DNA of 64,000 nucleotides from an uncultured delta proteobacterium (GTDB lineage Bacteria; Myxococcota_A; Polyangia; Fen-1088): positions 68,763 through 132,762 of the forward strand of contig CAWGPW010000043.1 in the NCBI GenBank assembly GCA_963824555.1. Direction: 5' to 3'. The position numbers were made by a program, and so were the translations under genes. The notes beneath the pieces are model-generated. The model was not told where the DNA came from. It saw only the letters and a program-made list of their open reading frames with translations, and did no database searches. Of the stretch, positions 10,251 to 61,780 are shown piece by piece (position 1 is the first letter of the stretch; each line of letters opens with the position of its first letter).

Positions 10251-10429
10251 GATTCACCTGCGGCTGGGGTCCCTAGCAGTATTGACATCGGTAGCTCATG
10301 CGCACATCTGGACAGGGTACCATGGGGCGCAAGGAATGTGTCTTTCGACTATTTGTGCAAGAAGGAACTCAAGCTACGACCGTGAAATTCAGCTTGCGAC
10401 GGTCAAGATGTCCGATGTAGGGTCTATTC

Positions 10430-27719: not shown

Positions 27720-28202
27720 ATGTGTCAGGTCGATCAGATCATCGCGGGCCATGAGGAGCTTGGCAAAGAGCACCTCATCCCGCTTCTGCAGGAGATTCAG
27801 GCCAAGGAAGGCTACCTATCCCAGGCCGCCATGAACAAGGTGGCGGACGCCACTGGCGTTCCGCAGAGCCGTGTGTTCGGCGTTGCGACCTTCTACAACC
27901 AGTTCCGCTTTGCCCCCAAAGGCGCGCACGTCATCGAGGTGTGCCGGGGCACGGCCTGCCACGTGAAGCAGAGCTTGAAGCTGGCCCAGCACCTGACACG
28001 CAAGCTGAATCTCAAGCCGAACGGCAACTCGCCGGACGACAAGTTCACCGTCATCACGGTGGCTTGCCTCGGGGCGTGCTCCATCGCGCCGGTCATCAAG
28101 CTGGATGGCGAGTTCTACGGCCATCTCGACGTGGAAAAACTCGACCACCTGCTCGACGAGGCCGCGCAAGAGTGCAAAGGGGACAGCCATGCGGTCAAGT
28201 AA
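27720..28202 (+). CDS. NuoE-like [2Fe-2S] thioredoxin-fold subunit of NADH-dependent [FeFe]-hydrogenase (HydC/HndA-like)
   Basis: CRGTACHVKQ...VACLGACSIAPV [2Fe-2S] Cys pattern of the NuoE/HoxE family. Confidence 0.8.
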   Translation: MCQVDQIIAGHEELGKEHLIPLLQEIQAKEGYLSQAAMNKVADATGVPQSRVFGVATFYNQFRFAPKGAHVIEVCRGTACHVKQSLKLAQHLTRKLNLKPNGNSPDDKFTVITVACLGACSIAPVIKLDGEFYGHLDVEKLDHLLDEAAQECKGDSHAVK

Positions 28203-31930: not shown

Positions 31931-33956
31931 ATGGGCGTGATTCAGACCATCCTGCAGAATTGCCGCCGCTGCTACTCGTGCGTGCGCGAGTGCCCGGCCA
32001 AGGCGATCAAGATCGTCGACGGCCAGGCGTCGGTGGTCAAAGAGCGCTGCATCGCCTGCGGCAACTGCACGGTGGTCTGTTCGCAAAACGCCAAGGCCTA
32101 TGCCAGCGGCATCGAGCGGGTTTGCCAGCTTCTGGCTGGCGGCGGTCCGGTGGTGGCCATGGTGGCGCCGTCCTTTCCCGCGGATGACTGCGGCCAGGAT
32201 CCGGGGCGTCTCGTCGGGGCGTTGCGCGCACTCGGCTTTTCCCACGTGGTCGAGGTCGCCTACGGGGCGGATCTCACCAACAAGGCCTACCGCGCGTACA
32301 TCAAGGAGCACCCCACGGGCACGCGCCTGGCCACGGCGTGCCCGGCGCTGGTCGAGTACGTGCGCAAATACGCGCCCCATCTGGTGGACTGCCTGATTCC
32401 CATCGTGTCGCCCATGATCGCGACGGCGATGGCGGTCAAGGCGCTCTATGACCAGTCGCACGCCTGCGTCTTCATCGGGCCGTGTGTCGCCAAGAAGCTG
32501 GAGATGCAAGATCCCAACGTGCCGGCCGTCGTCGATGGCGTGCTGACCTTCGACGAGCTGAGGCGACTCTTCGCCGAGCGCGGGGTGCAGGTCGGCGACG
32601 CCACATCGGGCGAGTTCGATCCGCCGCATGCCGGTTCCGGGCGGCTCTATCCCCTGGTTGGTGGTTTGCTCAAGGGTGCCGGTCTCGAGCGCAGCTCGCT
32701 CAACGCCGAGGTCATGGTGCTATCGGGCGCGCCCGAGATTCTCGATGTCCTGGCCGACCTGCGCCCAGACGACCCGCAGCCGCTCTTCATCGAACCGCTC
32801 ATGTGCCGTGGTTGTTACAGCGGTCCCGCCACGCACGGGGACAAGCGGCGCCCGCAGCGTAAGCGGCGCGTGGCCGACTACGTGAAGTCGCGCATGGACG
32901 AGACTGCCGAGGCGTCGATGGAATTGCCTGCGCTCGATCTCGGACGCACCTTTACGGTCGACGATCAACGCCTGAAAGAGCCGAGCGAGCAGGAAATCAG
33001 GGTCATTCTCGCTCGCACCAACAAGTTCGCCACCGAGGACGAGCTCAACTGTGGGGCGTGCGGCTACGAATCCTGCCGTGCCAAGGCCGTGGCCGTGTAC
33101 CGCGGGCTGGCCGAAGAGGCCATGTGCCTACCCTTCATGATCGAGCAGGCCGAGCGCGTGTGTCACGAGCTGAACGTCCCCTGGCCCAACCTCAAGGACA
33201 TCCACCGCCACCTCATCAACACCGAGAAGCTGGCCTCCATGGGGCAGATGGCGGCCGGTGTGGCGCACGAGCTGAACAACCCCCTCGGCACCATCCTGCT
33301 CTATACCAACCTGCTTGCGCGCAAGCTCAAGGACCGGCCCGAGCTCGATCATGATTTGAAACTGCTCGTCGACGAGTCCAACCGCTGCAAGAAAATCATC
33401 GGCAACCTGCTCGACTTCGCCCGGCAGAACCGGGTGCAACTGGAACGCACGAATGTGGCCGAGCTTTTTCAGCGCGTGGTCGAGGATTCGCTCTTCACCT
33501 TGCGCGACACGGGATCCGCCTTGCGCATCACCTGCGAAGCACCGCCCGATCTGCACGTCGATCTCGACAAAGATCAGATCGGCCAGGTGCTCATCAACCT
33601 GGTCAAGAACGGCATCGAGGCCATGGAAGGCAAAGAGGGCACGGTGCGCCTGGTGGCCGTCGACGAGCCGGCGACCGGACGCGTGCGCATGGCGGTCAGC
33701 GACGAGGGCCGGGGCATCGCGCCGGAGGCCCGCGACAAGGTCTTCCAACCGTTCTTCACCACCAAGAGCCTCGGTCGAGGCACCGGGCTCGGCCTGCCCA
33801 TCGCCTACGGCATCGTCAAGATGCACGGCGGACGGATTCTGGTTCGATTCGGATCCCGTGTGCGGAACCACGTTCACCCTGGAATTGCCCAAAACCCAGT
33901 CGCTGCGAAGGAGTCACCTGTATGGCGAAGAGCCCCAAGATTCTGTTTGTCGATGA
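31931..33956 (+). CDS. Sensory [FeFe]-hydrogenase-like (HydS-type H-cluster domain) fused to histidine kinase. Contains a +1 frameshift at ~33836-33840.
   Basis: 2x[4Fe-4S] ferredoxin N-term. H-cluster-like motifs ATACPALV / IGPCVAKKLE / EPLMCRGCYSGP. Cx2Cx4Cx16C motif (CGACGYESC...16...C). HisKA H-box GVAHELNNPLGTI. HATPase (GRGTGLGLPIAYGIVKMHGG), then the frame changes. The downstream frame gives WFDSDPVCGTTFTLELP. Confidence 0.7.
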
Positions 33957-34344
33957 CGACCGAGATTTTCTTGCCGCGCAGACCGCTTTTTTCGGTGGGC
34001 GTGGCTACGAGGTCGTCACCCTCGACCGCGTGGAAGGCGCCCTGGAACGCATCAGTCAGGAGCGGCCCGATGTCATCGTGCTCGACCTCATGATGGAGCA
34101 CTACGATTCGGGCTTCATGCTCGGGCGGCGCATCCGGCAAGACCCGGCCATGCTCGAGGTTCCCATCCTCATGCTGTCGGGCGTGGCGGCGGCGACGGGA
34201 CACAAGTTCGCCGCCGAGGCCGCGGCGCTCAAGGATTGGATCAAGCTCGACGCCTTTCTGGACAAGCCGGTGACCGGCCGCCAGCTGCTCAAGGTCGTCG
34301 AGGAAAAGCTCGGGGCACGAGGCGCGGCTACGGCCACGGGATAA
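33922..34344 (+). CDS. Stand-alone response-regulator receiver protein (paralog of 27245..27664)
   Basis: 141 aa REC only (ILFVDDD...VIVLDLMMEH...DKP). Confidence 0.8.
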   Translation: MAKSPKILFVDDDRDFLAAQTAFFGGRGYEVVTLDRVEGALERISQERPDVIVLDLMMEHYDSGFMLGRRIRQDPAMLEVPILMLSGVAAATGHKFAAEAAALKDWIKLDAFLDKPVTGRQLLKVVEEKLGARGAATATG

Positions 34345-34346
34345 CC

Positions 34347-35805
34347 GTGCCCAGCATCCTGGTCATCGACGACGAATACGGCGTTCGCTCGGGGATTCGC
34401 CAGATCCTCGAGCTGGAAGGCTACGCCGTGGAGGTCGCAGCGACCGGGCGCGAGGCCCTGGAGCTTCTCGACCAGCGACCGTTCGACATCGCGCTCATCG
34501 ACTACCAACTGCCCGATCTCGATGGGCTGACCCTGCTGGCATCCATGCGCAGCCGCAAGCTCGCCACCATGACCTGCATGATCACGGCCTACGCCAACAT
34601 CGATACCGCCATCGCCGCCACCCGGCAGGGTATCGATTTCTTCCTGCCCAAGCCGTTCTCGCCCGACGATCTTCTCGGCGTCATCGAGACGTTGTCGCGC
34701 CATAAGCAGCTCAAAGAGGAAGCGGAGAAGCTGCGCAAGGAGAACGAGGCCAACCTGCTTGCCCTGGCCACCGAGAAAAGCCAAACCAGCTCGCTGGTGG
34801 CGTCCCTGCGCGACGCCGTCCTGGTCATCAATCGCGAGCGCGAGGTGGTGCTGGTCAACCACGCCATGTCCGCCTTGCTCGGCCGCGCGCCCAACAATTT
34901 GGTGCGCGCGCCTGTCGACGAGGTGCTCGGGGCTGCGCCCTTGTCCGGGCTGGCCGACTTGCTTTCCGCCCAGGGCGATGAGGAACGCAAGCTCGCCGAG
35001 CTCACCATCGGCGACCGCATCTTCTTCGCCAGCGTGGTCGCCTTTCATGGCGAGCAAGGGGAAGCTCTCGGTCGCATCCTGACCCTGGCCGACGTGACCG
35101 ACGTGCGCCGCATGGCCATGGAAAAGCCGCGTTTCATTCGCACCATGGTGCATGAATTCCGCTCTCCCCTCGGCGCCATCCGCAGTCTCATCGAGGTGGC
35201 CACCGAAAAGAGCCTGGGCGCCGACCTTGCGCCGTACTTGCCCTTTCTCGAACGTGCGGACAAGCGCATCGACAAGATGGTCGAGCTGATCGGCGAGCTG
35301 CTCTCGCTCTCGCGCATCGATCTGGAGCGGACCACAAATGTCGCGGAGCCCCCAGCGGACGTCTCGGTGGCTGTGGCCGCGACCCTGGATCTGTACCGGG
35401 AAAAACTCGTCGAGCGCAGGATCACTGCCAGCGTGGATGCCGCTCCCGACCTGCCGCGCGCGCGCATCGGCGACGAGGATTCTGAGGACCATCCTTTCCA
35501 ACCTGGTGGGCAATGCCATCAAATACGGTCGGGACGATGGTTCTTTGCGCCTGCGCGTGGTCCAGCACGAAGGCAAGCTCCACATCGAGGTCGCGGATTC
35601 AGGGATCGGCATCCGTGCCGAGAATCTGCCCCAAGTGTTCCAGGAGTTCTTTCGCGAGAAGCGCTCCGAGACGCGTGACATCGACGGCAACGGACTTGGG
35701 CTGGCCATCGTCAAGCGTCTGGTCGAGCGGGTGGGAGGCCAGATCGAGGTCGAAAGCACCCTCGGCGTGGGCTCGCTCTTTCGCGTGATTCTTTGCCCCG
35801 CCTAA
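34347..35805 (+). CDS. Hybrid receiver-PAS-histidine kinase. GTG start. Contains a +1 frameshift at ~35478-35484.
   Basis: N-terminal REC (ILVIDDE...IALIDYQLPDLDG). PAS-like middle. H-box MVHEFRSPLGAIRS. The HATPase block (ILSNLVGNAIKYG...GNGLGLAIVKRLVE) lies in the +1 frame (ORF 35338..35805). Confidence 0.7.
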
Positions 35806-35905: not shown

Positions 35906-38377
35906 ATGACTCAAACGACTCCCGAGACCTCTGGCCCCGATCTGGCCGCGCTGCGCGACTTGCTGGCGAGCTGGCCGGATCTCAAGCCGCGCAACCTGAT
36001 CGCCGTCTTGCAACGCACGCAGGAAGCCTACGGCTACCTGCCCATGGAGGCGCTGGACGCCATCGCCGACAGCATGCACATCGCCGAGGCGCGGGTGTAC
36101 GGCGTGGCCACCTTCTACTCGCAGTTTCGCCTGAAACCGCAGGGCGAGCACGTCATCCAGGTGTGCAACGGCACCGCCTGCAACGTGAAGGGATCGGAAG
36201 ATCTGCTGGGCGAGCTGGTGGCGGTGCTGGGCATCCACCCCGGCGACACCACCCCCGACGGCAAGGTGACGCTTGAAAAGGTGAATTGCGTGGGCGCCTG
36301 CGGCGTGGCGCCGGCCATCGTCGTCGACGGCGAGGTGCACGGCCGTGTGACCCCCAAGTTGGTCGGGCGATTGGCGCGCAAGCTCCTCACCGCGCCGAAG
36401 CCAGTGGTCCTCTCGCGCAAATCCGCGGCCGAGAAGGTCCGCGGGCGCACCTTTCTCGAGCGCTGCTGCGACAAGTGCCAGAACCGTCCCGGCACGCCGT
36501 GCCCGAACTTTCTGCTTTGTCGCATGGAAGGCGTTTCCTGCCACGACGACGAACAGTGCGGGAAGTTCCGTGAGGAATTGCGCCAACTGGCCGAGCACAA
36601 CGCGCCCCAGTACGCGGCCACGGCCTTTCTGTGCAAGGGCCTGACCTGCGACGCCAGCGACGAGCCGGGGGTGTACAAGACCTTCCTTTCAGAACTGAAG
36701 AAACGCGGACTGACGGGCAAGGTCAATTTCATCGAGACCGGCTGCCAGGGACTGTGCGAGGTGGGCCCAATCGTGCAGCTCAAGCCTCTCGAAGCCTTCT
36801 ACTGCCGCGTGAAGGCCGCCGATGTGGCCGAGATCGTCGAGAAACACATCCTCGGCGGTCAGATCGTCGAGCGCCTGCTCTACGCCCCCGGCCACGTGAC
36901 GGAAGCCTCGATTCCGTTCTACAGCAAGCAAGTCCGCCGCGTGCTTTCCAACACCGGTAAGATCGATCCCGAGAACATCGACGAATACATCGCCCGCGAG
37001 GGGTACAAGGCGCTCTACAAAGCGCTCAAGGAAATGACGCCCGAGCAGGTCATCGCCGACGTGACTGCGGCGGGCTTGCGTGGCCGTGGCGGCGGTGGGT
37101 TCCCCACGGGCAAGAAATGGGAGATTGCGCGAGCCCAGGCCGACAGCACCCGCTACATCGTGTGCAACGCCGACGAGGGCGACCCGGGCGCGTTCATGGA
37201 TCGCAGCCTTCTCGAAGGCGATCCGCACCGCGTGCTCGAAGGCATCCTCATCGCGGCCTACGCCATCGGTGCCGAGCAAGCCTTCATCTACTGCCGGGCC
37301 GAGTATCCGCTGGCTATCCGCCGCCTGGAAATCGCCATGGCCCAGGCGCGGCTGTACGGATTGATCGGTCCCAATATTCTTGGGACCGGCAAGAGCCTGC
37401 ACGTGGAGATCGTGCAAGGCGCGGGCGCCTTCGTGTGCGGCGAGGAGACCGCCATGCTCTCCAGCATCGAGGGCAAGCGCGGCATGGCCCGCAACAAGCC
37501 GCCCTATCCGGCCCAGCACGGTTTCGCCGGACATCCGACCTGCGTGAACAACGTGGAAACCTTCGCCAATGTGCCGCTGATTCTGGCCAAGGGCGTGGCG
37601 TGGTTTCGCAGCGTGGGGACGGAGAAGAACGCCGGTACCAAGATTTTCTCGCTGTCGGGCAAGATCAAGAACACCGGTCTCGTCGAGGTGCCCATGGGCA
37701 TCACCCTGCGCGAGCTGCTGCACGACATCGGCGGCGGCGCGCCCGAGGGTTCGACCATCAAGGGCGCGCAGACCGGCGGTCCGTCGGGCGGGTGCATCCC
37801 GGCCGATCGCATGGATGTCACCGTCGACTACGAAAGCCTGAGGCGGCTGGGCGGGATGATGGGCTCGGGCGGCTTGGTGGTCACCGATTCGGGCACCTGC
37901 ATGGTGAGCTTCGCCAAGTTCTTCCTGGGGTTCACCCAGCACGAATCGTGCGGCAAGTGCATCCCGTGCCGCGAAGGCACCAAGCGCATGCTCGAGATCC
38001 TGGAACGGATCACGGATGGCAAGGGCAAGATGGAGGACATCACCGAGCTGCGCCACCTGGCGCTCGTCATCTCGCGTACCTCGGCCTGCGGACTCGGGGC
38101 CTCGGCGCCGAGCCCCGTGGTGTCGACCCTGCGCTACTTCGAGCACGAGTACGTGTCGCACATCAAGGACACGCGCTGCCTGGCCGGCGTGTGCCGCTCG
38201 CTGCTCACCTACCACATCCTGGCCAACTGCCGCGGTTGCGGCCTGTGCGCGCGCGGCTGTCCCGTCCAGTGCATCAGCGGCGACAAGGGCGAGATGTACG
38301 TCATCGACAACGCCCGCTGTATCAAGTGCGGCGAGTGCAACCGGGTATGTCCCTTCGGCGCCGTGGCGCGCACCTAG
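35906..38377 (+). CDS. NuoE-NuoF fusion subunit of a second NADH-dependent/bifurcating-type [FeFe]-hydrogenase
   Basis: 823 aa. N-terminal NuoE-like 2Fe-2S (CNGTACNVKG...VGACGVAPA). Extra Cys-rich linker. NuoF core (GLRGRGGGGFPTGKKW, SCGKCIPCREG). C-terminal 2x[4Fe-4S]. Confidence 0.85.
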   Translation: MTQTTPETSGPDLAALRDLLASWPDLKPRNLIAVLQRTQEAYGYLPMEALDAIADSMHIAEARVYGVATFYSQFRLKPQGEHVIQVCNGTACNVKGSEDLLGELVAVLGIHPGDTTPDGKVTLEKVNCVGACGVAPAIVVDGEVHGRVTPKLVGRLARKLLTAPKPVVLSRKSAAEKVRGRTFLERCCDKCQNRPGTPCPNFLLCRMEGVSCHDDEQCGKFREELRQLAEHNAPQYAATAFLCKGLTCDASDEPGVYKTFLSELKKRGLTGKVNFIETGCQGLCEVGPIVQLKPLEAFYCRVKAADVAEIVEKHILGGQIVERLLYAPGHVTEASIPFYSKQVRRVLSNTGKIDPENIDEYIAREGYKALYKALKEMTPEQVIADVTAAGLRGRGGGGFPTGKKWEIARAQADSTRYIVCNADEGDPGAFMDRSLLEGDPHRVLEGILIAAYAIGAEQAFIYCRAEYPLAIRRLEIAMAQARLYGLIGPNILGTGKSLHVEIVQGAGAFVCGEETAMLSSIEGKRGMARNKPPYPAQHGFAGHPTCVNNVETFANVPLILAKGVAWFRSVGTEKNAGTKIFSLSGKIKNTGLVEVPMGITLRELLHDIGGGAPEGSTIKGAQTGGPSGGCIPADRMDVTVDYESLRRLGGMMGSGGLVVTDSGTCMVSFAKFFLGFTQHESCGKCIPCREGTKRMLEILERITDGKGKMEDITELRHLALVISRTSACGLGASAPSPVVSTLRYFEHEYVSHIKDTRCLAGVCRSLLTYHILANCRGCGLCARGCPVQCISGDKGEMYVIDNARCIKCGECNRVCPFGAVART

Positions 38378-38394
38378 AGGAACGGAGACTTGCC

Positions 38395-40137
38395 ATGAGC
38401 GACGTCAATCTGATCATCAACGACCTGCCGGTGAGCGTTCCCGCCGGCTCGACGATTCTCGAAGCCGCGCAGGCGCTGAGCATCCGCATTCCTACCCTGT
38501 GCTACGACAAGCAGCTCACGGTGTCGGGCGCCTGCCGCCTGTGCGTGGTAGAGGTGGCCAATCCCACGGGCTCCACGCGGCTCGAGCCGTCATGCTCGTT
38601 TCCAGTGCAAGAAGGTATGCGGGTGCGGACCAACACGCGCGAGCTGCGCGATGCCCGCCGCACCATCATCGAGCTGATCCTGGCCAACCATCCGCGCGCT
38701 TGCCAGACCTGCATTCGCAACCAGCGCTGCAGTCTGCAGGATGCCTGTCGTGAATACGGCATCGACAAGATCCGCTACGAGGGCGAAAAGCGGCATCACG
38801 CCGTCGATGCTTCGTCGGTGGCCATCACGCGCCACCCGGACTACTGCATCCTGTGCGGTAAGTGCGTGAAAGTCTGCAAGGAAGTGCAGGGCGTGTACGC
38901 ACTGGATTTCGTCAACCGCGGCTTTTCGACCACGGTGCTGCCGCCCTTCGATCGCGACCTCGCCGACACGGTCTGCGTGTTGTGTGGGCAGTGCTTGCTC
39001 AAGTGTCCGGTCGCAGCCATCCGCGACAAGAGCTACATCAAGACGGTTGCCGATGCGCTGGAAGATCCGGACAAGATCGTCACCGTTCAAATCGCACCCT
39101 CGGTGCGGGCCACCGTTGGCGAGCTCTTCGGCCTTCCCCCGGGCGTGTCGTTGACCCGCAAACTGCCGACCGCGCTTCGCCGCGTCGGTTTCAAGTACAT
39201 CTTCGATACCGATTTCGGCGCCGACATGGCGGTCATGGAGGAAGGCCACGAGCTCGTGGCGCGCTTGCAGAAAGGCGGGCCGTATCCGCTCATCACCAGT
39301 TGCTCCCCGGGCTGGGTGAAGTTCATGGAGCACTTCTTCCCCGAGCTCATTCCGAACACGTCTTCGGTCAAGTCGCCGCAGCAGATTCTCGGCGTGCTGA
39401 CCAAGACGTTCTTCGCCGAGCGCAATGGCATTGACCGCAAGAAGCTCTTCAACGTCTCGATCATGCCGTGCTCGGCCAAGAAGTTCGAGATCCAGCGCCC
39501 CGAACACCGTCTGGACGACGGCACCCCCGAGGTGGACGCCGTCCTGACCACGCGCGAGCTCGGCGACTTGCTCAAGATGCACGACATCGACCTCCCGTCG
39601 CTGCCCGAGTCGGCCTTCGACCCCATCCTGGGCGAAACCACGGGCGCCGGTCTGATCTTCGGCGTGACCGGCGGTATGATGGAGGCCGCGCTGCGCACGG
39701 TGGCCGCGGTGATGGACCCCCATACCGAGCCGCGCATGGAGTACTCGGTCTTGCGCGGAACCGGGGGCATCAAGCGCGGCTCGGTGCTGATCGGCGAGCG
39801 CGAGATTAGGCTTTGCGCCGTGCACGGGCTGGCCAACGCGCGCAAAATCCTCGATGACCTTCGTGCGGGCCGCGAGGAAATCCACTTCCTGGAAGTCATG
39901 GCCTGTCCCGGCGGCTGCATCGGCGGCGGTGGTCAGCCCTTGCCCACCGACGAGGAAACCCGCCGCAGGCGCATCGAGGCCATGTACGCCGAGGATCGCG
40001 GCATGCCCATTCGGCAATCGCACAAGAACCCGGCCGTTCGCACGGTGTACGACGAGTTCCTGGGCGAGCCCTGCGGCGAGAAGGCGCACCACCTTCTGCA
40101 CACGCACTACGCCGCCCGCTCGCCACGCGGGTTCTAA
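38395..40137 (+). CDS. hydA: [FeFe]-hydrogenase catalytic subunit, second copy, also with L1 = TSCSPGW
   Basis: Good RBS (AGGAACGGAGAC). Motifs ITSCSPGW, IMPCSAKKFE, EVMACPGGCIGGGGQP. The last 257 bp are duplicated at 42173..42429. Confidence 0.85.
   Translation: MSDVNLIINDLPVSVPAGSTILEAAQALSIRIPTLCYDKQLTVSGACRLCVVEVANPTGSTRLEPSCSFPVQEGMRVRTNTRELRDARRTIIELILANHPRACQTCIRNQRCSLQDACREYGIDKIRYEGEKRHHAVDASSVAITRHPDYCILCGKCVKVCKEVQGVYALDFVNRGFSTTVLPPFDRDLADTVCVLCGQCLLKCPVAAIRDKSYIKTVADALEDPDKIVTVQIAPSVRATVGELFGLPPGVSLTRKLPTALRRVGFKYIFDTDFGADMAVMEEGHELVARLQKGGPYPLITSCSPGWVKFMEHFFPELIPNTSSVKSPQQILGVLTKTFFAERNGIDRKKLFNVSIMPCSAKKFEIQRPEHRLDDGTPEVDAVLTTRELGDLLKMHDIDLPSLPESAFDPILGETTGAGLIFGVTGGMMEAALRTVAAVMDPHTEPRMEYSVLRGTGGIKRGSVLIGEREIRLCAVHGLANARKILDDLRAGREEIHFLEVMACPGGCIGGGGQPLPTDEETRRRRIEAMYAEDRGMPIRQSHKNPAVRTVYDEFLGEPCGEKAHHLLHTHYAARSPRGF
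39881..40137 (+). repeat. Direct repeat copy 1 (native 3' end of hydA2, 257 bp)
   Basis: About 99% identical to 42173..42429. Differences: CAGCCC vs CAGCTC, stop TAA vs TAG. Confidence 0.8.
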
Positions 40138-40157
40138 CCCCGTATAGCTTCGGGGTT
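40136..40157 (+). terminator. Hairpin overlapping the hydA2 stop (AACCCCG-N8-CGGGGTT), possible intrinsic terminator without U-tract
   Basis: 7-bp GC-rich stem and 8-nt loop directly after TAA. Absent after the duplicated copy. Confidence 0.3.
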
Positions 40158-40267
40158 TGCAGGCATTCTTCTCGGCGCGCTCGCCGGCGGTTTTGCTGCG
40201 GCGATAATCGATGACTCCCTCCTGGCACTCGAGCCCATCCGCAAGGAGCCGTTCGTCAGTGTCGTCT

Positions 40268-41047
40268 TCATTCCAACCGCAAGAGGCGCGACGTTGGCTT
40301 TGGGCGGCCGGTTCTGATCCGTAAGAGCACACCGAGGCGCGATTGCTGCTTCTCGTCGGCAAGGCGCAGGATCGCCTGAGCCACCTTGGCCGGGTTGCCG
40401 CGCGCGCGGCTTGGGTCGCCGAAGGTCGAGCGGAGGACGACGCCCACGGTCGCCTCGTAGTCGGGCGTGATGGGACAGGCGAGCATCGACAGGCCGAACA
40501 TGTCGGTGCGCATGCCGCCCGGCTCGACGCAAGTGACGCGGATGCCGAGCGGGCCGACCTCGCGCGATAGCACCTCGCTGAAGCCGCCGACCGCCCACTT
40601 GGCCGACTGGTAGGCGCCCAGGCCTGGCGTGGCGCGCCGCCCGCCGATGGACGAGATCTGGATGATGTGGCCGTCGCGCTGGGCGTGCATCACGGGCAGC
40701 GCGGCGCGCGTGACATTGTAGACGCCGAAAAAGTTCGTCTCGATCTGGCGGCGGAAGTCGTCCTCGGACTGGTCCTCGATCGAGTCGGCGGCGATATGGC
40801 CTGCGTTGTTGACCAGGACGTCGAGTCGCCCGAAGGCGGAGAGTGCGACCGCCACCGCGGCGCGCGCCGCAGCCGGATCCGTGACGTCGAGCGGGGCGAT
40901 GCGCAGTCGGTCGCTCGGCAACAGAACGTCGAGGTCGCGCAAGTCGCGCGCGGTGGCGACGAGACGATGGCCGGCGGCGAGCACGGCCTGCGCGAGCTCG
41001 CGCCCTAGGCCGCGGGAGCACCCCGTGATGAGCCAGACTTTGCACAT
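40268..41047 (-). CDS. Short-chain dehydrogenase/reductase (SDR) family oxidoreductase
   Basis: TGCSRGLGRELA Rossmann motif, NNAG, catalytic YxxxK (YQSAKWAV). Confidence 0.8.
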   Translation of the reverse strand: MCKVWLITGCSRGLGRELAQAVLAAGHRLVATARDLRDLDVLLPSDRLRIAPLDVTDPAAARAAVAVALSAFGRLDVLVNNAGHIAADSIEDQSEDDFRRQIETNFFGVYNVTRAALPVMHAQRDGHIIQISSIGGRRATPGLGAYQSAKWAVGGFSEVLSREVGPLGIRVTCVEPGGMRTDMFGLSMLACPITPDYEATVGVVLRSTFGDPSRARGNPAKVAQAILRLADEKQQSRLGVLLRIRTGRPKPTSRLLRLE

Positions 41048-41227
41048 GATGACCTCCTCTGCTGTCAGCAGACCTCTGCTCTGTCACGCGGATCCTGCGA
41101 CAGCCAATGGATCGAATCCTGGCAAGCTGAGCTGACGTATCCGCCGCGTGGCCCGCGCTCGCAACGTCGTGGACCGTCTCGGCATCTCACCTAGAGCGCC
41201 GATCAGGAGGCGCACGATGGGAGTCGC

Positions 41228-42157
41228 ATGCGCGCAATCATGATCACGAAACAAGGTGGGCCCGAGGTTCTTGCTGTTCGCGACGTCCCCGTGCGAGCGG
41301 CCGGGCGTGGTGAGGTACGCATCTCGGTGAAGGCGGCGGCCGTGAATCCGACCGACATCGCGCTGCGAACGAACGCGGCGTACGCCAAGGGAACACCGGG
41401 CATTCCCGGAATGGACGCGGCCGGCGTCATCGAGTCCGTGGGAGAGGGGGTCGACCGGCTCAAGGTGGGGGACGAGGTGATGGCGGTAGTGAGCCCGCGG
41501 CGCCCCGAAGGGGGAGCCCAGATCGAGCTCCAAGTGGTGCCCGCGGCGTCGGTAGTGCCGATTCCAAGCGGCGCGACGCTGGCGCAGGCGTCGACGCTCC
41601 CAATGAACGGGCTGACCGCGCTGCTCGCACTCGACCTGCTCAAGCTGAAGACGGGGGAGACCCTAGCGGTGAGCGGCGGTGCCGGGCACCTGGGCTCTAT
41701 TGCTATCGTGCTTGCCAAGCAGCGGGGGCTGCGGGTGATCGCCGATGCGAAGACCTCCGAGACGGAGCTGGTGCGTAGCCATGGGGCGGATGTCGTCGTG
41801 GCGCGCGGGGAACGGTTTTGCGACGAGGTGCGTGCCGCAACGAAAGGAGGCGCCGATGCGCTGTTCGACACGGCACTCTTGGGGCGCGACTCCTTCCCCG
41901 CCATTCGCGACGGCGGCGCCTATGTGCCGGTACGCGGCTGGGACAAGACCCCGGCCGTGCGGGGAATCCGGATCCTCCCGGTCTTCGTCGCCGAGGCGCT
42001 CGAACGGACCGATTGGCTGAACGACCTGCGCGATCTGGCGTCGCGTGGGCTGATCAAGCTGCGTGTCGCGGAAGAATATTCCCCCGAGCGCGCCGCGGAC
42101 GCCCAGCGCGCAATGGAGGCGGGCGGACTGCGCGGCCGGGCGGTCATCGTTTTCTGA
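41228..42157 (+). CDS. Medium-chain dehydrogenase/reductase, NADPH:quinone oxidoreductase-like
   Basis: GEVRISVKAAAVNPTD..., GDEVMAV, SGGAGHLGSIAIVLAK cofactor motif. Confidence 0.75.
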   Translation: MRAIMITKQGGPEVLAVRDVPVRAAGRGEVRISVKAAAVNPTDIALRTNAAYAKGTPGIPGMDAAGVIESVGEGVDRLKVGDEVMAVVSPRRPEGGAQIELQVVPAASVVPIPSGATLAQASTLPMNGLTALLALDLLKLKTGETLAVSGGAGHLGSIAIVLAKQRGLRVIADAKTSETELVRSHGADVVVARGERFCDEVRAATKGGADALFDTALLGRDSFPAIRDGGAYVPVRGWDKTPAVRGIRILPVFVAEALERTDWLNDLRDLASRGLIKLRVAEEYSPERAADAQRAMEAGGLRGRAVIVF

Positions 42158-42172
42158 GGGGCTCCCCCAAAG

Positions 42173-42429
42173 TCCACTTCCTGGAAGTCATGGCCTGTCC
42201 CGGCGGCTGCATCGGCGGCGGTGGTCAGCTCTTGCCCACCGACGAGGAAACCCGCCGCAGGCGCATCGAGGCCATGTACGCCGAGGATCGCGGCATGCCC
42301 ATTCGGCAATCGCACAAGAACCCGGCCGTTCGCACGGTGTACGACGAGTTCCTGGGCGAGCCCTGCGGCGAGAAGGCGCACCACCTTCTGCACACGCACT
42401 ACGCCGCCCGCTCGCCACGCGGGTTCTAG
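42173..42429 (+). pseudogene. Orphan duplicate of the hydA2 3' end (last 85 codons, no start). Direct repeat copy 2.
   Basis: Encodes HFLEVMACPGGCIGGGGQLLPTDEETRRRRIEAMYAED...ARSPRGF, identical to the HydA2 C-terminus except P->L. Begins 16 nt after the MDR stop. Confidence 0.8.
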
Positions 42430-42500
42430 CCAGAGCTTGTCCGGAAATTGCGCGCCGCGCTCGCTCGCCATCGCGTGTGCTTCTTAGGACATATGCTATC

Positions 42501-42512
42501 ATTGATATCAAT
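42501..42512. promoter_or_regulatory. Perfect 12-bp palindrome ATTGATATCAAT immediately upstream of the RHH antitoxin start (likely autoregulatory operator)
   Basis: Ends 1 nt before the ATG at 42513. RHH antitoxins bind such inverted repeats. Confidence 0.45.
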
Positions 42513-42743
42513 ATGGCACAGCTCATCGTGAGAAACGTTCCCCAGCAGGTGGTTGCCCGCCTCAAGCAGCGGGCTGCAAGTCGCGGCCATTCAGCCGAAG
42601 CAGAGCATCGTGAGATCCTCAAGCAGGCGTTGCTCTCGTCGCAGGCGCCCTCGCTGAAGGCCATGCTGGCCGGGATTCCGGATGTGGGCCGCGATTCCGA
42701 CTTCGGGCGGCCGCGGCGCTTGGGTCGGCGAGTTGCGTTGTGA
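42513..42743 (+). CDS. Ribbon-helix-helix (FitA/Arc-like) antitoxin
   Basis: MAQLIVRNVPQQVVARLKQRAASRGHSAEAEHREIL is the RHH N-terminus typical of FitA-type antitoxins. Confidence 0.75.
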   Translation: MAQLIVRNVPQQVVARLKQRAASRGHSAEAEHREILKQALLSSQAPSLKAMLAGIPDVGRDSDFGRPRRLGRRVAL

Positions 42744-43168
42744 AGGGCTTTCTGATCGACACCAATGTCCTCTCCGAGCTTCGCAAAGGTGCGCGCGCCG
42801 ATGTGAATGTTCGGCGTTGGTTCGAGAGAATCGATGAGAGCTCGATCTTTCTCAGCGTTTTGGTCACGGGCGAGATTCGCCGCGGAATCGAGTCAATCCG
42901 GAAGCGCGATCCGCGCGCTGCCTCGGCGCTGGAACGCTGGCTCGACAACGTGCTGGAGGCGCATGCCGAGCGCGTCTTGCCGGTGGACGCCGTGACCGCT
43001 GACGAGTGGGGGAGGCTGGACGCTCGGGGGAGCTTGCCGGTTGTGGACGGGCTGCTGGCGGCGACGGCATGGGTACACGACTTGACCCTGGTCACGCGCA
43101 ACGTGAAGGATGTCATCCGCACCGGCGTCGACCTGCTCGACCCATTCATGTCCACAACTCAAGCGTAA
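42740..43168 (+). CDS. vapC: PIN-domain toxin VapC/FitB-like
   Basis: GFLIDTNVLSEL (first PIN acidic residue) ... LVTRNVKD. GTGA overlap with the antitoxin. Confidence 0.8.
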   Translation: MKGFLIDTNVLSELRKGARADVNVRRWFERIDESSIFLSVLVTGEIRRGIESIRKRDPRAASALERWLDNVLEAHAERVLPVDAVTADEWGRLDARGSLPVVDGLLAATAWVHDLTLVTRNVKDVIRTGVDLLDPFMSTTQA

Positions 43169-43207
43169 GGGAAGATAATCCTTCGCCTGGAAACAAAGGA
43201 CACTCAG

Positions 43208-44722
43208 ATGCACCGTGGTCGTAGAGAATGGTGGGTGACCGTCGCGCTGGGAGTCGTCCTGCTCAAGCCGATGGACGCCCGCGCGCAAAACCCGATCATC
43301 GACCAGGGTTCCGCCGATCCGTCGGTAAAAGTTTTCGGCGGTCGGGCGTATGTCTATGGCTCACACGACTTTTCCCCGAGCAACACGACCTGGATCATGA
43401 AGGACTGGAAGGTGTTTTCCAGTGCCGATCTCGTGACTTGGACCGACCATGGCGTGGTGCTCGACGACGACTCGCTTCCTTGGCGGGGTGTGACCGACAG
43501 AGACTTTGCGCCAGATGCCATCTTCTACAACGGCCAGTACTACTTCTACTTCCCGCTCGGCGACGGCACCATCGGCGTGGCCGCAGGTGCCTCGGCGGCG
43601 GGGCCGTTCACCGACATCCTCGGAAAAGCGCTGGTCGACAGCTCTACGGCGCCGATCTACAACATCGATCCGATGGCGATCCAGGACAGCGATGGGTCGC
43701 GCTATCTCATCTGGGGCAATGGCGGCTGCTACATTGCCCAACTGAACGACGACATGAAGTCGTTCAAGACCTCGCCTCAGAAGATTGTTATATCGGGGTC
43801 GGAAGGCTATACGGAAGGCCCATTTGCCTGGATGTACGGCGGCAAATACTATCTGCTGTATTCGAGATGCGGGTCGACCTGCCGTGACACTCTTGATTAT
43901 GGCGTCGCCAGCTCGCTCAAGGGCCCCTATACGTATAGGGGGACGATCATCGGACACTGCAAGTTTGGCAACGAGCATGGCAGCGTGTTTCAATTCAACG
44001 GTCAGTGGTACGTCGCCTACCATGATCTTTACCCCACCGACTTTTATCGCAAGACGAAGCTCGAGCTCATTCACTACACGAACGACGGCGACATTCCCAG
44101 GGTGTATCCGACCGACTACGGTGTGGGGCGCTACGATGGAAACAAGCCGATCGAGGCCGAGAACTACTTCGACAAATCGCCCGGCCTCGCTTACGAAGAC
44201 TGCAGCGACGCCGGAAACGGATTCGACGTCACCGCCATCACGAGCGACAGTTGGCTGAAGTTCCAGCAGGTCGATCTGGGGGCCGGAGCCGATTCGTTTC
44301 AGGCGCGCGTATCCGCAAGCTCGGGCGGAAGCGGCATCGAGATCCGCGTGGACAGCCTCGGCGGCATGCTGGTCGGAACGTGCGATGTCGCGGCTGGCGA
44401 CGAGACGTGGACGACGGTTGTCACCAGCCTCGATGGTACCGTCACGGGTATTCACGATGTCTTCCTCGTCTTCAAAGGGGGAACGGGAAATCTCCTCAAG
44501 CTGAACTGGATCCGCTTTACTTCATCGATCGATGGCGGCTTGGGGAGTGGTGTTTCTGGTGGCCTCGATGCCGATTCCAGTTGTGGCTCTGCGCCGAAGG
44601 CACCCGGTTGTTCGTGCAGCCTTGGTGGACATTCCGGACAGGCGTCGATCGGCGGTCGGCTGTGTATTCTGGGCGTGCTCGGGCTCATGCGGGCCAGGCA
44701 GAGGAAGCGCCCATTTCCTTGA
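43208..44722 (+). CDS. Secreted GH43 glycoside hydrolase (beta-xylosidase/arabinofuranosidase-like) + carbohydrate-binding module + MYXO-CTERM sorting tail
   Basis: Signal peptide. NPIIDQGSADPSV GH43 start block. CBM6-like region (IEAENYF...). C-terminal GCSCSLGG...hydrophobic...RARQRKR tail. Confidence 0.8.
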   Translation: MHRGRREWWVTVALGVVLLKPMDARAQNPIIDQGSADPSVKVFGGRAYVYGSHDFSPSNTTWIMKDWKVFSSADLVTWTDHGVVLDDDSLPWRGVTDRDFAPDAIFYNGQYYFYFPLGDGTIGVAAGASAAGPFTDILGKALVDSSTAPIYNIDPMAIQDSDGSRYLIWGNGGCYIAQLNDDMKSFKTSPQKIVISGSEGYTEGPFAWMYGGKYYLLYSRCGSTCRDTLDYGVASSLKGPYTYRGTIIGHCKFGNEHGSVFQFNGQWYVAYHDLYPTDFYRKTKLELIHYTNDGDIPRVYPTDYGVGRYDGNKPIEAENYFDKSPGLAYEDCSDAGNGFDVTAITSDSWLKFQQVDLGAGADSFQARVSASSGGSGIEIRVDSLGGMLVGTCDVAAGDETWTTVVTSLDGTVTGIHDVFLVFKGGTGNLLKLNWIRFTSSIDGGLGSGVSGGLDADSSCGSAPKAPGCSCSLGGHSGQASIGGRLCILGVLGLMRARQRKRPFP

Positions 44723-44782
44723 CCATCCCCTCCTGCACCCCGTGAATTGGCATCGGCGAGCGCGGCGCGGTACCATGTCCTG

Positions 44783-45379
44783 ATGCGGTCGTTGGCGGGG
44801 GCGGCGCTCATGGCGCTCATCGCGCTCGGGTCTAGAGACTCCGAGGCAGGGGAGCCCGAGCGCTCCGCGCCACGGTGCCTGACCCGCGTCCGCAAGCAAC
44901 TACCCGGCGAGACCATGGCGTCCTTCGTGAAAGGAGGCCACGTAGGGAGCAAGCACCTACTCTTCCGGCGCGGCGATGTGGTGCTGGTCATCGACTACGC
45001 GGTGCTCGAAGAAACCACGCAGGCTTTTCTCAAGCAGAAGGGGGCGGAAAAGTTTCCGGAGGAAGTGCGTCTCTTGCAGCGCTTTTCCCAGGCGTTCAAG
45101 AATCGCGACGAAGTCGACGCCGGCCCGCTTGTACAGAGCAGGCTCGAACAAGAGCGACTCGACTTTCGCCTGGCCGAAGTCTTCGACCAGGGGGCCTTCG
45201 TGATTCGCGACGCGCGAGGTACCTCGCAGAAGCCCATGGCGACCGCGCGGGCGGCGCCCGACATGATCCTTCGTCTCGACTACATCTATGAATGCGGCGA
45301 TCGGTGTGGAACGGGGGGGCGGGTCTTTCTCACGGATGGGTGCGAACAGTTGGTGGCGGTCACGGACTGGGTCCACTGA
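44783..45379 (+). CDS. Hypothetical secreted protein
   Basis: Signal peptide MRSLAGAALMALIALGS. No recognisable domain. Confidence 0.4.
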   Translation: MRSLAGAALMALIALGSRDSEAGEPERSAPRCLTRVRKQLPGETMASFVKGGHVGSKHLLFRRGDVVLVIDYAVLEETTQAFLKQKGAEKFPEEVRLLQRFSQAFKNRDEVDAGPLVQSRLEQERLDFRLAEVFDQGAFVIRDARGTSQKPMATARAAPDMILRLDYIYECGDRCGTGGRVFLTDGCEQLVAVTDWVH

Positions 45380-45431
45380 CGCCACGGCGTACACCCTGGC
45401 GCCGTGGCCTGGCCGCTGTATAAGGTCAGTT

Positions 45432-46013
45432 ATGACCACGTTCGCGCCAGCCCAAGTTGCCGCCGCCGCCGCCGCCCTTCGTCGTGGCGACATCGTGGCC
45501 TTTCCGACCGAGACCTACTATGGGCTTGCGGTGGACGCGCTCGACGGCGCGGCGCTTACTCGACTATTCGAGCTCAAGGGTCGGGACGGTGAGAAGGCGA
45601 GCGCCCTCTTGGTCGCCGATCTGGACATGTTCGCCGAGCTGTGCGCCGAGGTTCCGGCGCGGGCGCGCGAGCTCGTGGCCGCCCACTGGCCCGGACCCCT
45701 GACCCTTGCGCTGCCGGCGAAAGCGGACTTGCCTCCCGCCATCGTGCGCGACGGCTTCGTGGCCGCGCGCGTGTCCTCGCACTCCGTGGCGCATGCGCTC
45801 GTGACGGCGGTAGGTCGTCCTATCACTGCGACCAGCGCCAATCCGGCGGGAGCGGCCCCGCCCCGAACCGCGGCCGAGGTTCGCGCCTACTTCGGCGAGC
45901 AGGCACTTCACTTTCTCGACGCCGGTCCGACGCCCGGTGGGCAACCGAGCACGTTGGTTCGACTGCGCGGCGAGGACCTCGAGGTGTTGCGCAGGGGCGC
46001 GATCGCGCTCTGA
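45432..46013 (+). CDS. tsaC: L-threonylcarbamoyladenylate synthase (TsaC/YrdC domain)
   Basis: IVAFPTETYYGLAVDA...GPLTLALP are YrdC-family motifs. 193 aa. Confidence 0.75.
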   Translation: MTTFAPAQVAAAAAALRRGDIVAFPTETYYGLAVDALDGAALTRLFELKGRDGEKASALLVADLDMFAELCAEVPARARELVAAHWPGPLTLALPAKADLPPAIVRDGFVAARVSSHSVAHALVTAVGRPITATSANPAGAAPPRTAAEVRAYFGEQALHFLDAGPTPGGQPSTLVRLRGEDLEVLRRGAIAL

Positions 46014-61312: not shown

Positions 61313-61383
61313 GGGCCTGCAGTCTAGCCCCGGGCCCTCTAGCCCGCACCGTTCTTCAGTTGAATCTGACCAAATCACCGTAG

Positions 61384-61731: not shown

Positions 61732-61780
61732 TGCTGCCTGGTTCTTACCGGGTGTTCGTGCTACAGAGGAGCGTGCAACC

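Follow-up and report, generated by a model that had tools for sequence, protein, structure and literature searches.

Our analysis concerns the 3′ end of hydA2 in a 64-kb window, by which we mean the whole stretch of DNA under study. The gene (38395..40137, plus strand) encodes, as judged from its translation and its Pfam domains (Fer2_4, NADH-G_4Fe-4S_3, Fe_hyd_lg_C and Fe_hyd_SSU), an intact 580-aa [FeFe] hydrogenase catalytic subunit, which shares 98% protein identity over 580 aa with its counterpart in the relative L001. It stands last in the hydCB2-hydA2 operon, in which hydCB2 occupies 35906-38377. A base-by-base comparison demonstrates that 39881-40139 recurs at 42173-42431, with 257 of the 259 bases identical, so that chance is excluded as the origin of the repeat. 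With the AA that also matches upstream of the mismatch at 39880, a repeat search and pairwise alignment delimit a 262-nt direct repeat (39878-40139 and 42170-42431) with a spacing of 2292 nt, the only repeat of such size and identity in the window. The two differences that the first-pass annotation had noted in this duplication are real: at position 39938 the C of copy 1 corresponds to a T in copy 2, changing a GGGQP motif to GGGQL (Pro-to-Leu), and at position 40137 the stop codon TAA of copy 1 reads TAG in the second copy. These two single-nucleotide differences lie 199 nt apart, and the longest exact run shared by the copies is 198 nt.

Copy 1 (39881..40139, plus strand) comprises codons 496-580 of hydA2, the TAA stop and two further nucleotides, and is the genuine 3′ end of the gene. 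Copy 2 (42173..42431, plus strand) has no start codon, promoter or upstream gene part, begins 12-15 nt past the stop codon (42155-42157) of the preceding quinone oxidoreductase (MDR) gene and is out of frame with it; this supports the earlier view that copy 1 completes hydA2 while copy 2 is displaced, and shows copy 2 to be a promoterless fragment. The flank of copy 2, TAG-CC-AGAG, resembles the native flank TAG-ATC-AGAG of the relative L056, and the flank of copy 1, TAACCCC, is the allele type of L001 and of L042, the closest relative. Copy 2 is probably the displaced end of the resident hydA2, now a non-functional fragment. Either a recent event or gene conversion would account for the near-identity of the copies.

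The DNA between the copies begins with a spacer of about 207 bp (40140..40344; GC 61.8%) between the hydA2 stop and the onset of short-chain dehydrogenase (SDR) homology. It carries a hairpin (CCCCG-N8-CGGGG, 40141-40158) and, in a terminator scan, a terminator-like stem (40172-40187) with TTTT behind it, and it has no match among the fetched loci. An SDR gene on the minus strand and an MDR gene on the plus strand follow, as had been claimed, and the SDR gene (40268..41047) proves in addition to be truncated at its 3′ end. Its homology to full-length 276-aa SDRs is confined to 40345-41047; the last 42 native codons are missing, with 25 unrelated codons in their place. BLASTP gives 97% identity to the homologue P0219 over residues 1-233, and among the 120 matches listed all SDR homologues range from 272 to 304 aa, and for nearly all of them the alignment spans just 90% of the query. 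The relative L060 holds a native pair of a 276-aa SDR and an MDR, with 94% DNA identity to window positions 40345-41906, and here too homology starts at 40345. The intact MDR gene (41228..42157; Pfam ADH_N and ADH_zinc_N, of the NADPH:quinone oxidoreductase type) is divergent from the SDR gene, with which it has a common 180-nt promoter region (41048-41227). Copies of it with 95-98% DNA identity occur in three other, unrelated contexts (L052, L053 and L060), that of L052 lying between fragments that resemble insertion-sequence transposase genes, and the MDR gene appears from these contexts to be loose and much moved. The GC content of the SDR/MDR fragment is 69.1%, against 64.4% for hydA2 and 59.4% for the GH43 gene farther downstream. 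The proposal of a discrete circular element does not fit the make-up of the insert, which consists of the 207 bp and a 1.8-kb fragment (40345-~42168) that begins on the left within the SDR gene and ends in the hairpin 3′ of the MDR gene. These ends are arbitrary, and the insert reads as a foreign fragment and not as a discrete element.

The joint between the MDR gene and copy 2 (J2, 42158..42172, plus strand) retains a remnant of the MDR 3′ hairpin, GGGGCT followed, after deletion of CGATCG, by CCCCCAAAG, fused to a site internal to hydA2. Here L053 reads TGAGGGGCTCGATCGCCCCCAAGAAC, the window TGAGGGGCTCCCCCAAAGTCCAC and hydA2 GAGGAAATCCAC. Homology to the native MDR 3′ flank, as seen in L053, extends to CCCCCAA(A)G, 1-4 nt short of the orphan fragment, and the joint displays an A-rich microhomology of 2-4 nt, of which only AA or AAA is common with hydA2. 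J2 is thus a joint formed at microhomology within the MDR 3′ hairpin, and not an att-like site. The left boundary of the hydA2 duplication is abutted by a 13-nt palindrome, ACTTCC-T-GGAAGT, which is conserved coding sequence for HFLEVMA and is found in other hydA genes.

Downstream of copy 2 lie a fitA-like antitoxin gene (42516-42743; Pfam FitA-like_RHH), a PIN toxin gene (42740-43168; Pfam PIN) and a low-GC (59%) glycoside hydrolase gene with GH43 and CBM6 domains (43208..44722; Pfam), all on the plus strand; the last of these is the final gene of an island whose right edge falls at about 44723-44738. Beyond it, orf210 and a Sua5/YrdC-family gene (44747..46013, plus strand) are the conserved native downstream neighbors of hydA2 in relatives with an empty site. 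In two of these, L056 and L059 (HydA2 91-93% identical at the protein level), the hydA2 stop is followed by about 45 nt (46 nt in L056) and then by orf210/Sua5, and they are collinear with the window from 44738 and 44780 onward, respectively; L007 matches this layout more loosely, with Sua5 1.3 kb downstream of hydA2. Because L056 and L059 have this arrangement, the 4.6 kb from 40138 to ~44737, including fitAB and GH43, is strain-specific. It had been expected that hydA2 would directly precede fitAB where the cassette is absent; these relatives have orf210/Sua5 there instead, fitAB is absent downstream of hydA2 in all relatives compared, and fitAB is not the native neighbor of hydA2. Nor do the SDR/MDR genes natively follow hydA2 in any of the relatives compared, and neither postulated parental haplotype (hydA2-207 bp-SDR/MDR or full hydA2-fitAB) was observed intact, which counts against the recombination model set out below. 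Across about 17 relatives, homology past hydA2 ends within 0-4 nt of the stop codon, and the end of the repeat 2 nt past the stop is as expected if two haplotypes with different islands shared it.

A second orphan fragment of the hydA2 3′ end is found in L042 (MAG MFD05502.bin.2.118), whose hyd operon has 94% DNA identity to that of the window. It occupies 10000-10259, 11.6 kb inside an independently assembled 327-kb contig, and its start falls within 1-4 nt of the position at which the orphan of the window begins. At their right ends the two duplications do not agree: that of the window extends 2 nt beyond the stop codon, and that of L042 extends 15 nt beyond it. The L042 orphan starts 6 nt (CTTCGA) past the terIS-like end of an IS91-family element, where GTTC stands beside a subterminal palindrome (GCAAC-N12-GTTGC) upstream of a gene with Zn_Tnp_IS91 and Y2_Tnp domains, and five tyrosine-recombinase genes of the Phage_integrase family adjoin the orphan upstream. 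L042 also retains 90 nt of the SDR gene as a relic with 93-96% identity, in the same orientation and 6 kb downstream of the orphan. At ten positions the copies within each genome agree with one another against the other genome, a concerted pattern such that common descent of the two duplications requires gene conversion. The recurrent breakpoint counts against a random illegitimate joint; explaining it takes common descent together with gene conversion, or else a hot spot.

Pfam scans of the open reading frames in 35.9-46 kb detected no recombinase and bore out the earlier statement that no integrase lies between the repeats. When six recombinase and transposase proteins of L042 were compared with the 64-kb window by tblastn, only a 73-aa relic was found (16689-16907, 23 kb away), and the L042 IS91 transposase detected no IS91-family gene or end there. 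Nothing similar was found in IMG/VR.

Our data suggest a model in which one homologous exchange in hydA2 and one illegitimate joint produced the arrangement, as homology-facilitated illegitimate recombination or a Campbell-type event operating without a dedicated recombinase; we give this model about an even chance. The incoming DNA would derive from another haplotype or strain and would have carried the 3′ part of hydA2, its 207-bp flank, the truncated SDR gene and the intact MDR gene. It would have been anchored by homologous exchange, either in the 3′ end of hydA2 or upstream of that end, and an illegitimate joint at 2-4 nt of microhomology would have linked the MDR 3′ hairpin to hydA2 codon 496. 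Since 259 nt separate this joint from the downstream end of the resident gene, a stretch of that length would now be present twice, copy 1 keeping hydA2 intact and copy 2, the former resident end, being followed by the resident island (fitAB, GH43). The order of events and the identity of the resident copy are inferred, and the substrate may have been linear DNA, joined by homology-facilitated illegitimate recombination, or a circle entering by a Campbell single crossover.

The same single novel junction, J2, is exactly what a tandem duplication would leave. If the SDR/MDR genes were once native after hydA2, an unequal sister-strand exchange at microhomology could have doubled the 2292-nt unit (hydA2 3′ end, 207 bp and SDR/MDR), and a later exchange in copy 2 and orf210/Sua5 with a strain bearing fitAB-GH43 could have replaced the second SDR/MDR pair. 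The SDR relic in L042 resembles a decayed second unit, and the locus clearly swaps islands between strains; but this scheme needs two events where one suffices, the window holds no second SDR/MDR copy, no relative compared has the pair natively after hydA2, and the SDR gene was already truncated, with 207 unrelated bp between it and hydA2, so we regard this scheme as unlikely. We consider it quite unlikely that an IS91-family (HUH, rolling-circle) element beside codon 496 mobilized the hydA2 3′ end by reading through terIS, the passenger then providing the homology that docked the cargo behind hydA2 and the window later losing the insertion sequence but keeping the passenger. The location of the L042 orphan just beyond the terIS-like end is consistent with one-ended transposition (PMC13181058). 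The starts of the two orphans 1-4 nt apart are accommodated as well, and so is the MDR flank, which stops in the window at CAA(A)G; CAAG and GAAC, both present in the native flank of L053, are reverse complements of CTTG and GTTC, the targets of the IS91 family. Against this, the CAA(A)G match requires a 1-nt indel, the six nucleotides before the L042 orphan are unexplained, the right ends of the duplications are unlike, and a tblastn search of the 64-kb window with the L042 IS91 transposase revealed neither a gene nor an end of the IS91 family. Moreover, we know of no mechanism that leaves a passenger while precisely removing the insertion sequence, as this route demands.

Direct repeats flanking an insert in a restored target gene, with a left boundary nearly identical in two genomes, a 13-nt palindrome at that boundary and five Phage_integrase-family genes upstream of the L042 orphan, could also indicate a decayed site-specific element, in which a tyrosine recombinase acted at codon 496 and brought a replacement 3′ end before the integrase was lost, as for e14 in icd or a cis-mobilisable element. 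This is very unlikely: the repeats enclose no integrase and tblastn with the L042 recombinases recovered no more than a relic from the window, the two ends of the insert fall within a gene and at the MDR hairpin and share no att-like sequence, copy 2 is not succeeded by native flank, the right ends of the repeats differ between the window and L042, IMG/VR holds no counterpart, and the palindrome is merely the conserved HFLEVMA coding sequence. An assembly or phasing artefact, in which a chromosome with a single hydA2-fitAB 3′ end and a separate 2292-nt circle or second strain were threaded together, is highly improbable. The 198-nt exact run exceeds short-read k-mers, and an integrated insert gives the same assembly graph as a circle plus chromosome unless the differences 199 nt apart are phased. 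An independent assembly, L061 (SRR28012008), is 99.9% identical to the window over 42399-45144 and starts at the first 31-mer containing the G of TAG; it breaks exactly at the TAA/TAG difference, so both variants are present in that read set. Yet all four junctions need real reads, a like orphan lies deep in the L042 contig, an exact FitB match recorded from a contig of 0.2-1 Mb suggests that the window too comes from a long contig, and of the mis-join that the first-pass annotation had named as the alternative, a k-mer mis-join at J2 is implausible with only 2-4 nt in common, while the junction of copy 2 with fitAB is seen in the independent reads of L061.

The model of one homologous exchange and one illegitimate joint has its closest known parallel in homology-facilitated illegitimate recombination, which was reportedly described by de Vries and Wackernagel and by Prudhomme et al., both in 2002. 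Experiments documented this process in naturally transformable Acinetobacter, Streptococcus and Pseudomonas, where recipient DNA is usually lost, and the microhomology reported for it is 3-10 bp (PMC6382021). The window shares with it a one-sided homologous anchor, hydA2, coupled to an illegitimate joint at very short microhomology, and the integration of arbitrary-ended foreign DNA without an element-encoded enzyme. It differs in that the joint lies upstream of the anchor end, so that recipient DNA is duplicated, and in that the microhomology is just 2-4 nt, which counts against our model by being at or below the reported range (PMC6382021).

Campbell integration, as by e14 and phage 21, likewise gives a direct duplication of the target 3′ end, an intact gene and an orphan on the far side. 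Prophage e14 and phage 21 are discrete elements, each with an integrase of its own and with defined att sites, and they integrate in the 3′ end of icd, leaving a duplicated icd 3′ fragment; the window has no integrase, its insert ends are arbitrary, and its orphan is followed by strain-specific DNA and not by native flank. Cis-mobilisable elements, which are remnants of integrative elements with att sites on either side but no recombination genes, resemble the window in having direct repeats around a small cargo and no integrase; here, in contrast, the repeats do not correspond to the att sites of any known integrase, the cargo ends on one side in a truncated gene and no partner element was found. 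In the complex class 1 integrons of ISCR1 the 3′-CS is partly duplicated, and homology docks the cargo. By the same logic a captured fragment of a resident gene could dock cargo and give a direct duplication around it. The hydA2 fragment of L042, just past a terIS-like IS91-family end, is placed as in the ISCR1 and IS91-family systems of one-ended transposition (PMC13181058, PMC6218425), for which terIS architecture and the position of the moved DNA have been described (PMC13181058). Unlike ISCR1, the window has no IS91-family gene or end, its cargo is not antibiotic resistance, and the link is seen in one relative only.

The region just downstream of hydA2 is a hypervariable, fast-changing gene island, and the duplication looks like ordinary recombination within that island and not like a new kind of mobile element.

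A direct repeat at 39878-40139 and 42170-42431, its copies 2292 nt apart, is the sole long near-perfect repeat in the window by repeat search and alignment. When 39881-40139 and 42173-42431 are compared base by base, the 259 nt differ at two positions (C in copy 1 against T in copy 2 at 39938, and the stop codon TAA against TAG at 40137), with a longest exact run of 198 nt. The duplication cannot be due to chance, and it is real and was correctly described by the first-pass annotation. Copy 1 comprises codons 496-580 and the stop codon, and is the true end of hydA2 (38395-40137), which encodes a 580-aa [FeFe] hydrogenase catalytic subunit with every expected Pfam domain and is preceded by a fused hydC-hydB gene (35906-38377). 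Copy 2, the orphan, lacks the upstream part of the gene, is in a different frame from the MDR gene ending at 42157, and changes the conserved GGGQP motif to GGGQL. As to the terminator hairpin that had been noted between the copies, the stem CCCCG..CGGGG at 40141-40158 was not called by a terminator scan, while another stem at 40172-40187 was. Tandem arrays elsewhere in the window comprise five copies of an 87-nt unit at 61297-61812, the middle three 99-100% identical, and an array of 18-nt period at 5719-5934, rich in CCG and CCC, which probably encodes a proline-rich repeat protein.

The operon ending in hydA2 (35906-40137) has a paralogous hydB(C)-hydA operon at 28105-31919, exactly 8224 nt upstream and with patches of 73-84% DNA identity; by Pfam the first HydB-like protein (698 aa) has no thioredoxin-like 2Fe-2S (HydC) domain, which is present in the second (823 aa). 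Between the two operons lies a 720-aa protein (31931-34093) in which Fe_hyd_lg_C, Fer4 and FeS domains are fused to HisKA and HATPase_c; in this make-up it resembles a sensory [FeFe] hydrogenase joined to a histidine kinase. It is followed by a response-regulator/PAS/HisKA hybrid (34236-35678), and the pair look like an H2-sensing regulatory unit for the flanking operons. A search with the 85-aa orphan peptide returned many short HydA C-terminal proteins across phyla; those examined proved to be unrelated cases, one of them a decayed hyd operon. Another is a free-standing 141-aa gene at L048:8001-8426, and also in L049 and L050, which corresponds to the HydA C-terminal end (part of Fe_hyd_lg_C plus Fe_hyd_SSU). 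In a Bacteroidales lineage it occupies one position across several samples, flanked by rplM/rpsI and a DNA-polymerase-exonuclease gene, and no hydA lies nearby.

By Pfam, the copies enclose an SDR gene (40268-41047, minus strand) and an MDR/quinone-oxidoreductase-type gene (41228-42157, plus strand), and copy 2 is followed by a FitA-like antitoxin, a PIN toxin, a GH43-CBM6 hydrolase, the domain-less orf210 and a Sua5/YrdC-family gene. The SDR homologues listed (at least 120) are all 272-304 aa long, and nearly all cover just 90% of the window protein; the best of them, P0219, shows 97% identity over residues 1-233, followed by 42 residues that are missing from the window. By these alignments the window SDR gene is not intact. 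P0219 is encoded on contig L060, where the native arrangement is found: a complete SDR gene and, divergent from it, the MDR gene. L060 matches the window at 94% across 40345-41906, with no match left of 40345. Because this homology begins inside the SDR gene, the supposed cassette is made of two parts: about 207 bp (40138-40344) with no match to the loci compared, and a 1.8-kb fragment of an SDR/MDR locus with its left end within the SDR gene. The fragment extends from 128 nt within the SDR gene to the MDR 3' hairpin; arbitrary ends of this kind, and an intact source arrangement as seen in L060, are what an enzyme-free insertion predicts.

A discrete element would have constant ends, whereas the flanks and end points of the MDR gene differ among L060 and two further metagenome contigs, L052 and L053, where it occurs at 95-96% DNA identity in very different surroundings; L053 retains the first 8 SDR codons and the MDR 3' flank. 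The shared module consists of 125 nt of 5' flank and the ORF, ending 0-12 nt past the stop. An integron gene cassette was considered for it and set aside, the module being part of an SDR/MDR pair that diverges from a common promoter region. Counting the window (41022-42168), the same MDR gene is present at 95-98% DNA identity in four contexts (L052:1010-2065, L053:605-1747 and L060, reverse complement 1422-2984), its homology stopping at, or at most 12 nt past, its stop codon; in L052 it is flanked by a transposase-like ORF and a fragment resembling part of another transposase gene. Clearly, this MDR gene is on the move among soil bacteria. A 207-aa MDR fragment that is 98% identical (P0142) lies on a 123-kb contig, and exact-protein look-ups of the window HydA2, MDR, truncated SDR and FitA found none on record.

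The junction of the MDR gene with copy 2 (J2) can be compared with both of its partners. The MDR 3' flank in L053 reads TGA-GGGGCT-CGATCG-CCCCC-AAG-AACTCG, J2 reads TGA-GGGGCT-CCCCC-AAAG-TCCACTTCC, and hydA2 at the matching site reads GAGGAAA-TCCACTTCC. The MDR 3' hairpin, minus 6 nt, reaches to 1-4 nt from the orphan, and the MDR flank (CCCCCAA(A)G) and hydA2 (GGAAAT) overlap by 2-4 nt, sharing AA or AAA, possibly AAG in another allele. Read in this way, J2 would be a microhomology junction and not an attachment site; nor could it be the product of a k-mer mis-join, because its partners have just AA or AAA in common.

A genome scan with HydA2 yielded 47 loci, mostly from Myxococcota MAGs of soil and fen. 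These relatives have no common content 3' of hydA2, with homology ending 0-4 nt from the stop codon in about 17 loci, and SDR/MDR genes follow hydA in none of the relatives compared. In three of the loci (L024, L019 and L008) hydCB2 was split into overlapping tblastn pieces, as was hydA2 in L024 and L019, which points to frameshifts, whether from sequencing errors or in pseudogenes. Two close relatives, L056 and L059 (91-93% protein identity), came from a metagenome scan; in both, the hydA2 stop is followed by about 45 nt and then by an orf210 homologue and Sua5, collinear with the window from 44738 or 44780 on; in L007, Sua5 lies 1.3 kb downstream of hydA2. Since these empty-site relatives run from hydA2 into orf210/Sua5, the segment from 40138 to ~44737, orphan, fitAB and low-GC GH43 gene included, is an island that these relatives lack. 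The first-pass annotation had proposed to check whether fitAB directly follows hydA2 where the cassette is absent; L056 and L059, which are without the cassette, continue into orf210/Sua5, so that fitAB is not the native neighbour of hydA2 and this check fails as worded. The GH43 plus CBM6 gene (43208-44722) adjoins the fitAB toxin-antitoxin pair and probably represents a separate horizontal acquisition, because its GC content (59%, locally down to 55%) is clearly below that of its surroundings and it is missing in all relatives.

The flanks of the two copies bear on which of them is resident. Copy 2 is followed by TAG-CC-AGAG, where the empty site of L056 has TAG-ATC-AGAG, and these ~9 nt (TAG..CAGAG) are the sole native-looking part of its 3' flank; the flank of copy 1, TAA-CCCC, is the same as in the closest relative. 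This is weak evidence that copy 2 would be the old gene end and that copy 1 came with the inserted DNA, in agreement with the earlier proposal that copy 2 is a displaced resident end. The parental haplotypes, hydA2-SDR/MDR and hydA2-fitAB, were not seen intact among the 47 genome loci, 6 metagenome loci and 10 contig look-ups; L061, a contig from SRR28012008, has the hydA2 end followed by fitAB, but it begins within the repeat. Sliding-window identity against four relatives gave no clear break to mark a crossover point in hydA2. The orphan-boundary sequence had no match in IMG/VR, and searching metagenomes by the orphan-boundary motif revealed no new orphans, all six of the loci recovered being full-length hydA and two of them supplying the empty site.

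All junctions require real reads, and L061 offers an independent assembly with which to judge one of them. This contig matches 42399-45144 at 99.9% and starts at the first 31-mer holding the G of TAG; contigs of its type were presumably built with k = 31, and we take its start to mean a graph branch at the TAA/TAG SNP. Both variants would therefore exist in the SRR28012008 reads, and the junction of copy 2 with fitAB would be real. The 2292-nt unit may be integrated; alternatively, the chromosome may have a single copy, accompanied by a circle or a second strain. We consider an artefact of assembly or phasing very improbable.

The repeat itself has the form expected of a site-specific integrative element, whose attL and attR include the target-gene end: 259 nt with two mismatches bracket the inserted genes. 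Elements of the e14/icd or tRNA-gene island type carry their integrase within, and no recombinase or transposase was found in the island, where Pfam detects SDR, MDR, FitA, PIN and GH43 only. Integration would also leave the native flank behind copy 2, which is instead followed by fitAB-GH43 in place of the orf210/Sua5 of L056 and L059. We therefore hold a decayed integrative element to be highly unlikely. Searching the whole 64-kb window by tblastn with the five tyrosine recombinases and the IS91 transposase of L042, a 327-kb contig of the closest relative, found nothing beyond a 73-aa tyrosine-recombinase relic (16689-16907), which is 97% identical (96% at the DNA level) to the middle one of three tandem genes in L042 and is all that the window shows of that element family.

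This relative, MAG MFD05502.bin.2.118, has a hyd operon (contig L001) that is 94% identical to that of the window at the DNA level, and it holds an orphan hydA2 3' fragment of its own on the separate contig L042 (10000-10259). The start of the L042 orphan, at CCACTTCC, is 1-4 nt away from that of copy 2, and the orphan runs 15 nt past the last codon, in common with the hydA2 of its own genome. At 10 positions the copies agree within each genome against the other genome, and the L001 and L042 copies show 5 differences. A 90-nt SDR relic, 93-96% identical to the same SDR gene, lies 6 kb downstream of the L042 orphan. Upstream are five Phage_integrase-family genes, three of which overlap in tandem and resemble a recombinase-in-trio element, and a gene with Zn_Tnp_IS91 and Y2_Tnp domains; the five genes and the IS91-family gene form a block at L042:3027-9993, bracketed by direct repeats of ~100 nt (1326-1433 and 10370-10463, 84% mutually identical). 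A third copy of the repeat (98% identical) is found at L001:13689-13797, the extreme end of the hydA2 contig; contigs 22175 and 27126 of MFD05502 have this ~109-nt repeat in common. L001 and L042 may be neighbouring contigs, because L001 ends in repeats that are also in L042.

The end of the IS91-like element in L042, defined from a homologous relic in L014, has GTTC beside a GCAAC-N12-GTTGC palindrome, 6 nt from the orphan. A terIS end has this architecture, and one-ended transposition mobilises the DNA immediately past terIS (PMC13181058). A Y2 HUH transposase and a terIS-like end beside the orphan are present in L042 and absent from the window, and a match of J2 to the IS91 targets (CTTG, GTTC, GTCC) requires a 1-nt indel, the MDR flank ending in CAA(A)G and the native flank having CAAG and GAAC. 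Capture of the window fragment by an IS91-family element is an explanation that we regard as unlikely.

In the window itself there is no sign of an element-encoded mechanism, because the island has no recombinase or transposase, the insert ends are arbitrary, the joint would be one of microhomology, and the repeat ends where the haplotypes diverge. In the simplest history, to which we give an even chance, DNA would have come in once from a different haplotype of the hydA2 locus, through homologous exchange within hydA2 and through an illegitimate joint placed 259 nt before the resident gene ends, all in one step and free of dedicated enzymes. A homologous anchor for such an exchange is at hand, as copy 1 is continuous with hydA2 and its upstream operon, collinear with the relatives. 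The proposed import fits homology-facilitated illegitimate recombination, in which the illegitimate joints show 3-10 bp of microhomology in experimental systems (PMC6382021), and it fits a Campbell-type single crossover of a circular fragment equally. The first-pass idea of an integrated circular element is only partly right, in that the gene-restoring repeat and a Campbell-type crossover of a circle agree with the data; a discrete element with fixed ends does not. A history in two steps, tandem duplication followed by replacement of the island, does nearly as well and would account for the SDR relic 3' of the L042 orphan, and we rate it as a rather unlikely course of events. Simple tandem duplication does not describe the window, in which just the 259-nt part recurs and there is no second copy of SDR/MDR. 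Taken as a class, enzyme-free recombination in one step or in two is the probable origin of the duplication.

One feature stays unexplained: the same breakpoint adjoins an IS91-family end in the sister genome. One possible explanation is that the orphan descends from a common ancestor and underwent gene conversion later; the shared SDR relic is compatible with this, and so is an interior that is homogenised between differing edges (-2 G, TAG). A hot spot is also possible, with the IS91-family end in L042 as the sole concrete candidate. A restriction-cut end was considered as a cause of the shared breakpoint, and no supporting evidence was found. More speculatively, and with a slim chance of being correct, codon 496 beside ACTTCC-T-GGAAGT would be a recurrent, enzyme-targeted breakpoint, at which an IS91-family rolling-circle element or the adjacent tyrosine recombinases captured the hydA2 3' end; the fragment would serve as a portable homology arm docking cargo behind an intact [FeFe] hydrogenase gene, and the window copy would have lost the insertion sequence. 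Such capture would be an environmental analogue, in soil Myxococcota, of ISCR1 and the 3'-CS of complex class 1 integrons. The near-identical breakpoint beside an IS91-family end is the only feature able to raise the importance of the locus, as it would indicate targeted capture of hydrogenase fragments.

For annotation, the orphan should not be mistaken for a small hydrogenase subunit, and the SDR gene is a truncated pseudogene. Overall, the locus is best understood as a scar left by ordinary recombination, within a hypervariable island that follows a hydrogenase operon. Its junctions, its empty site and the source locus of the insert can all be identified, which makes the locus useful for the study of island turnover, if not surprising. 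If our main reading of an enzyme-free import is true, it is a clean natural case in which an uncultured soil myxobacterium had foreign genes stitched in beside a conserved operon through two exchanges, one homologous and the other illegitimate, with no mobile-element enzyme.
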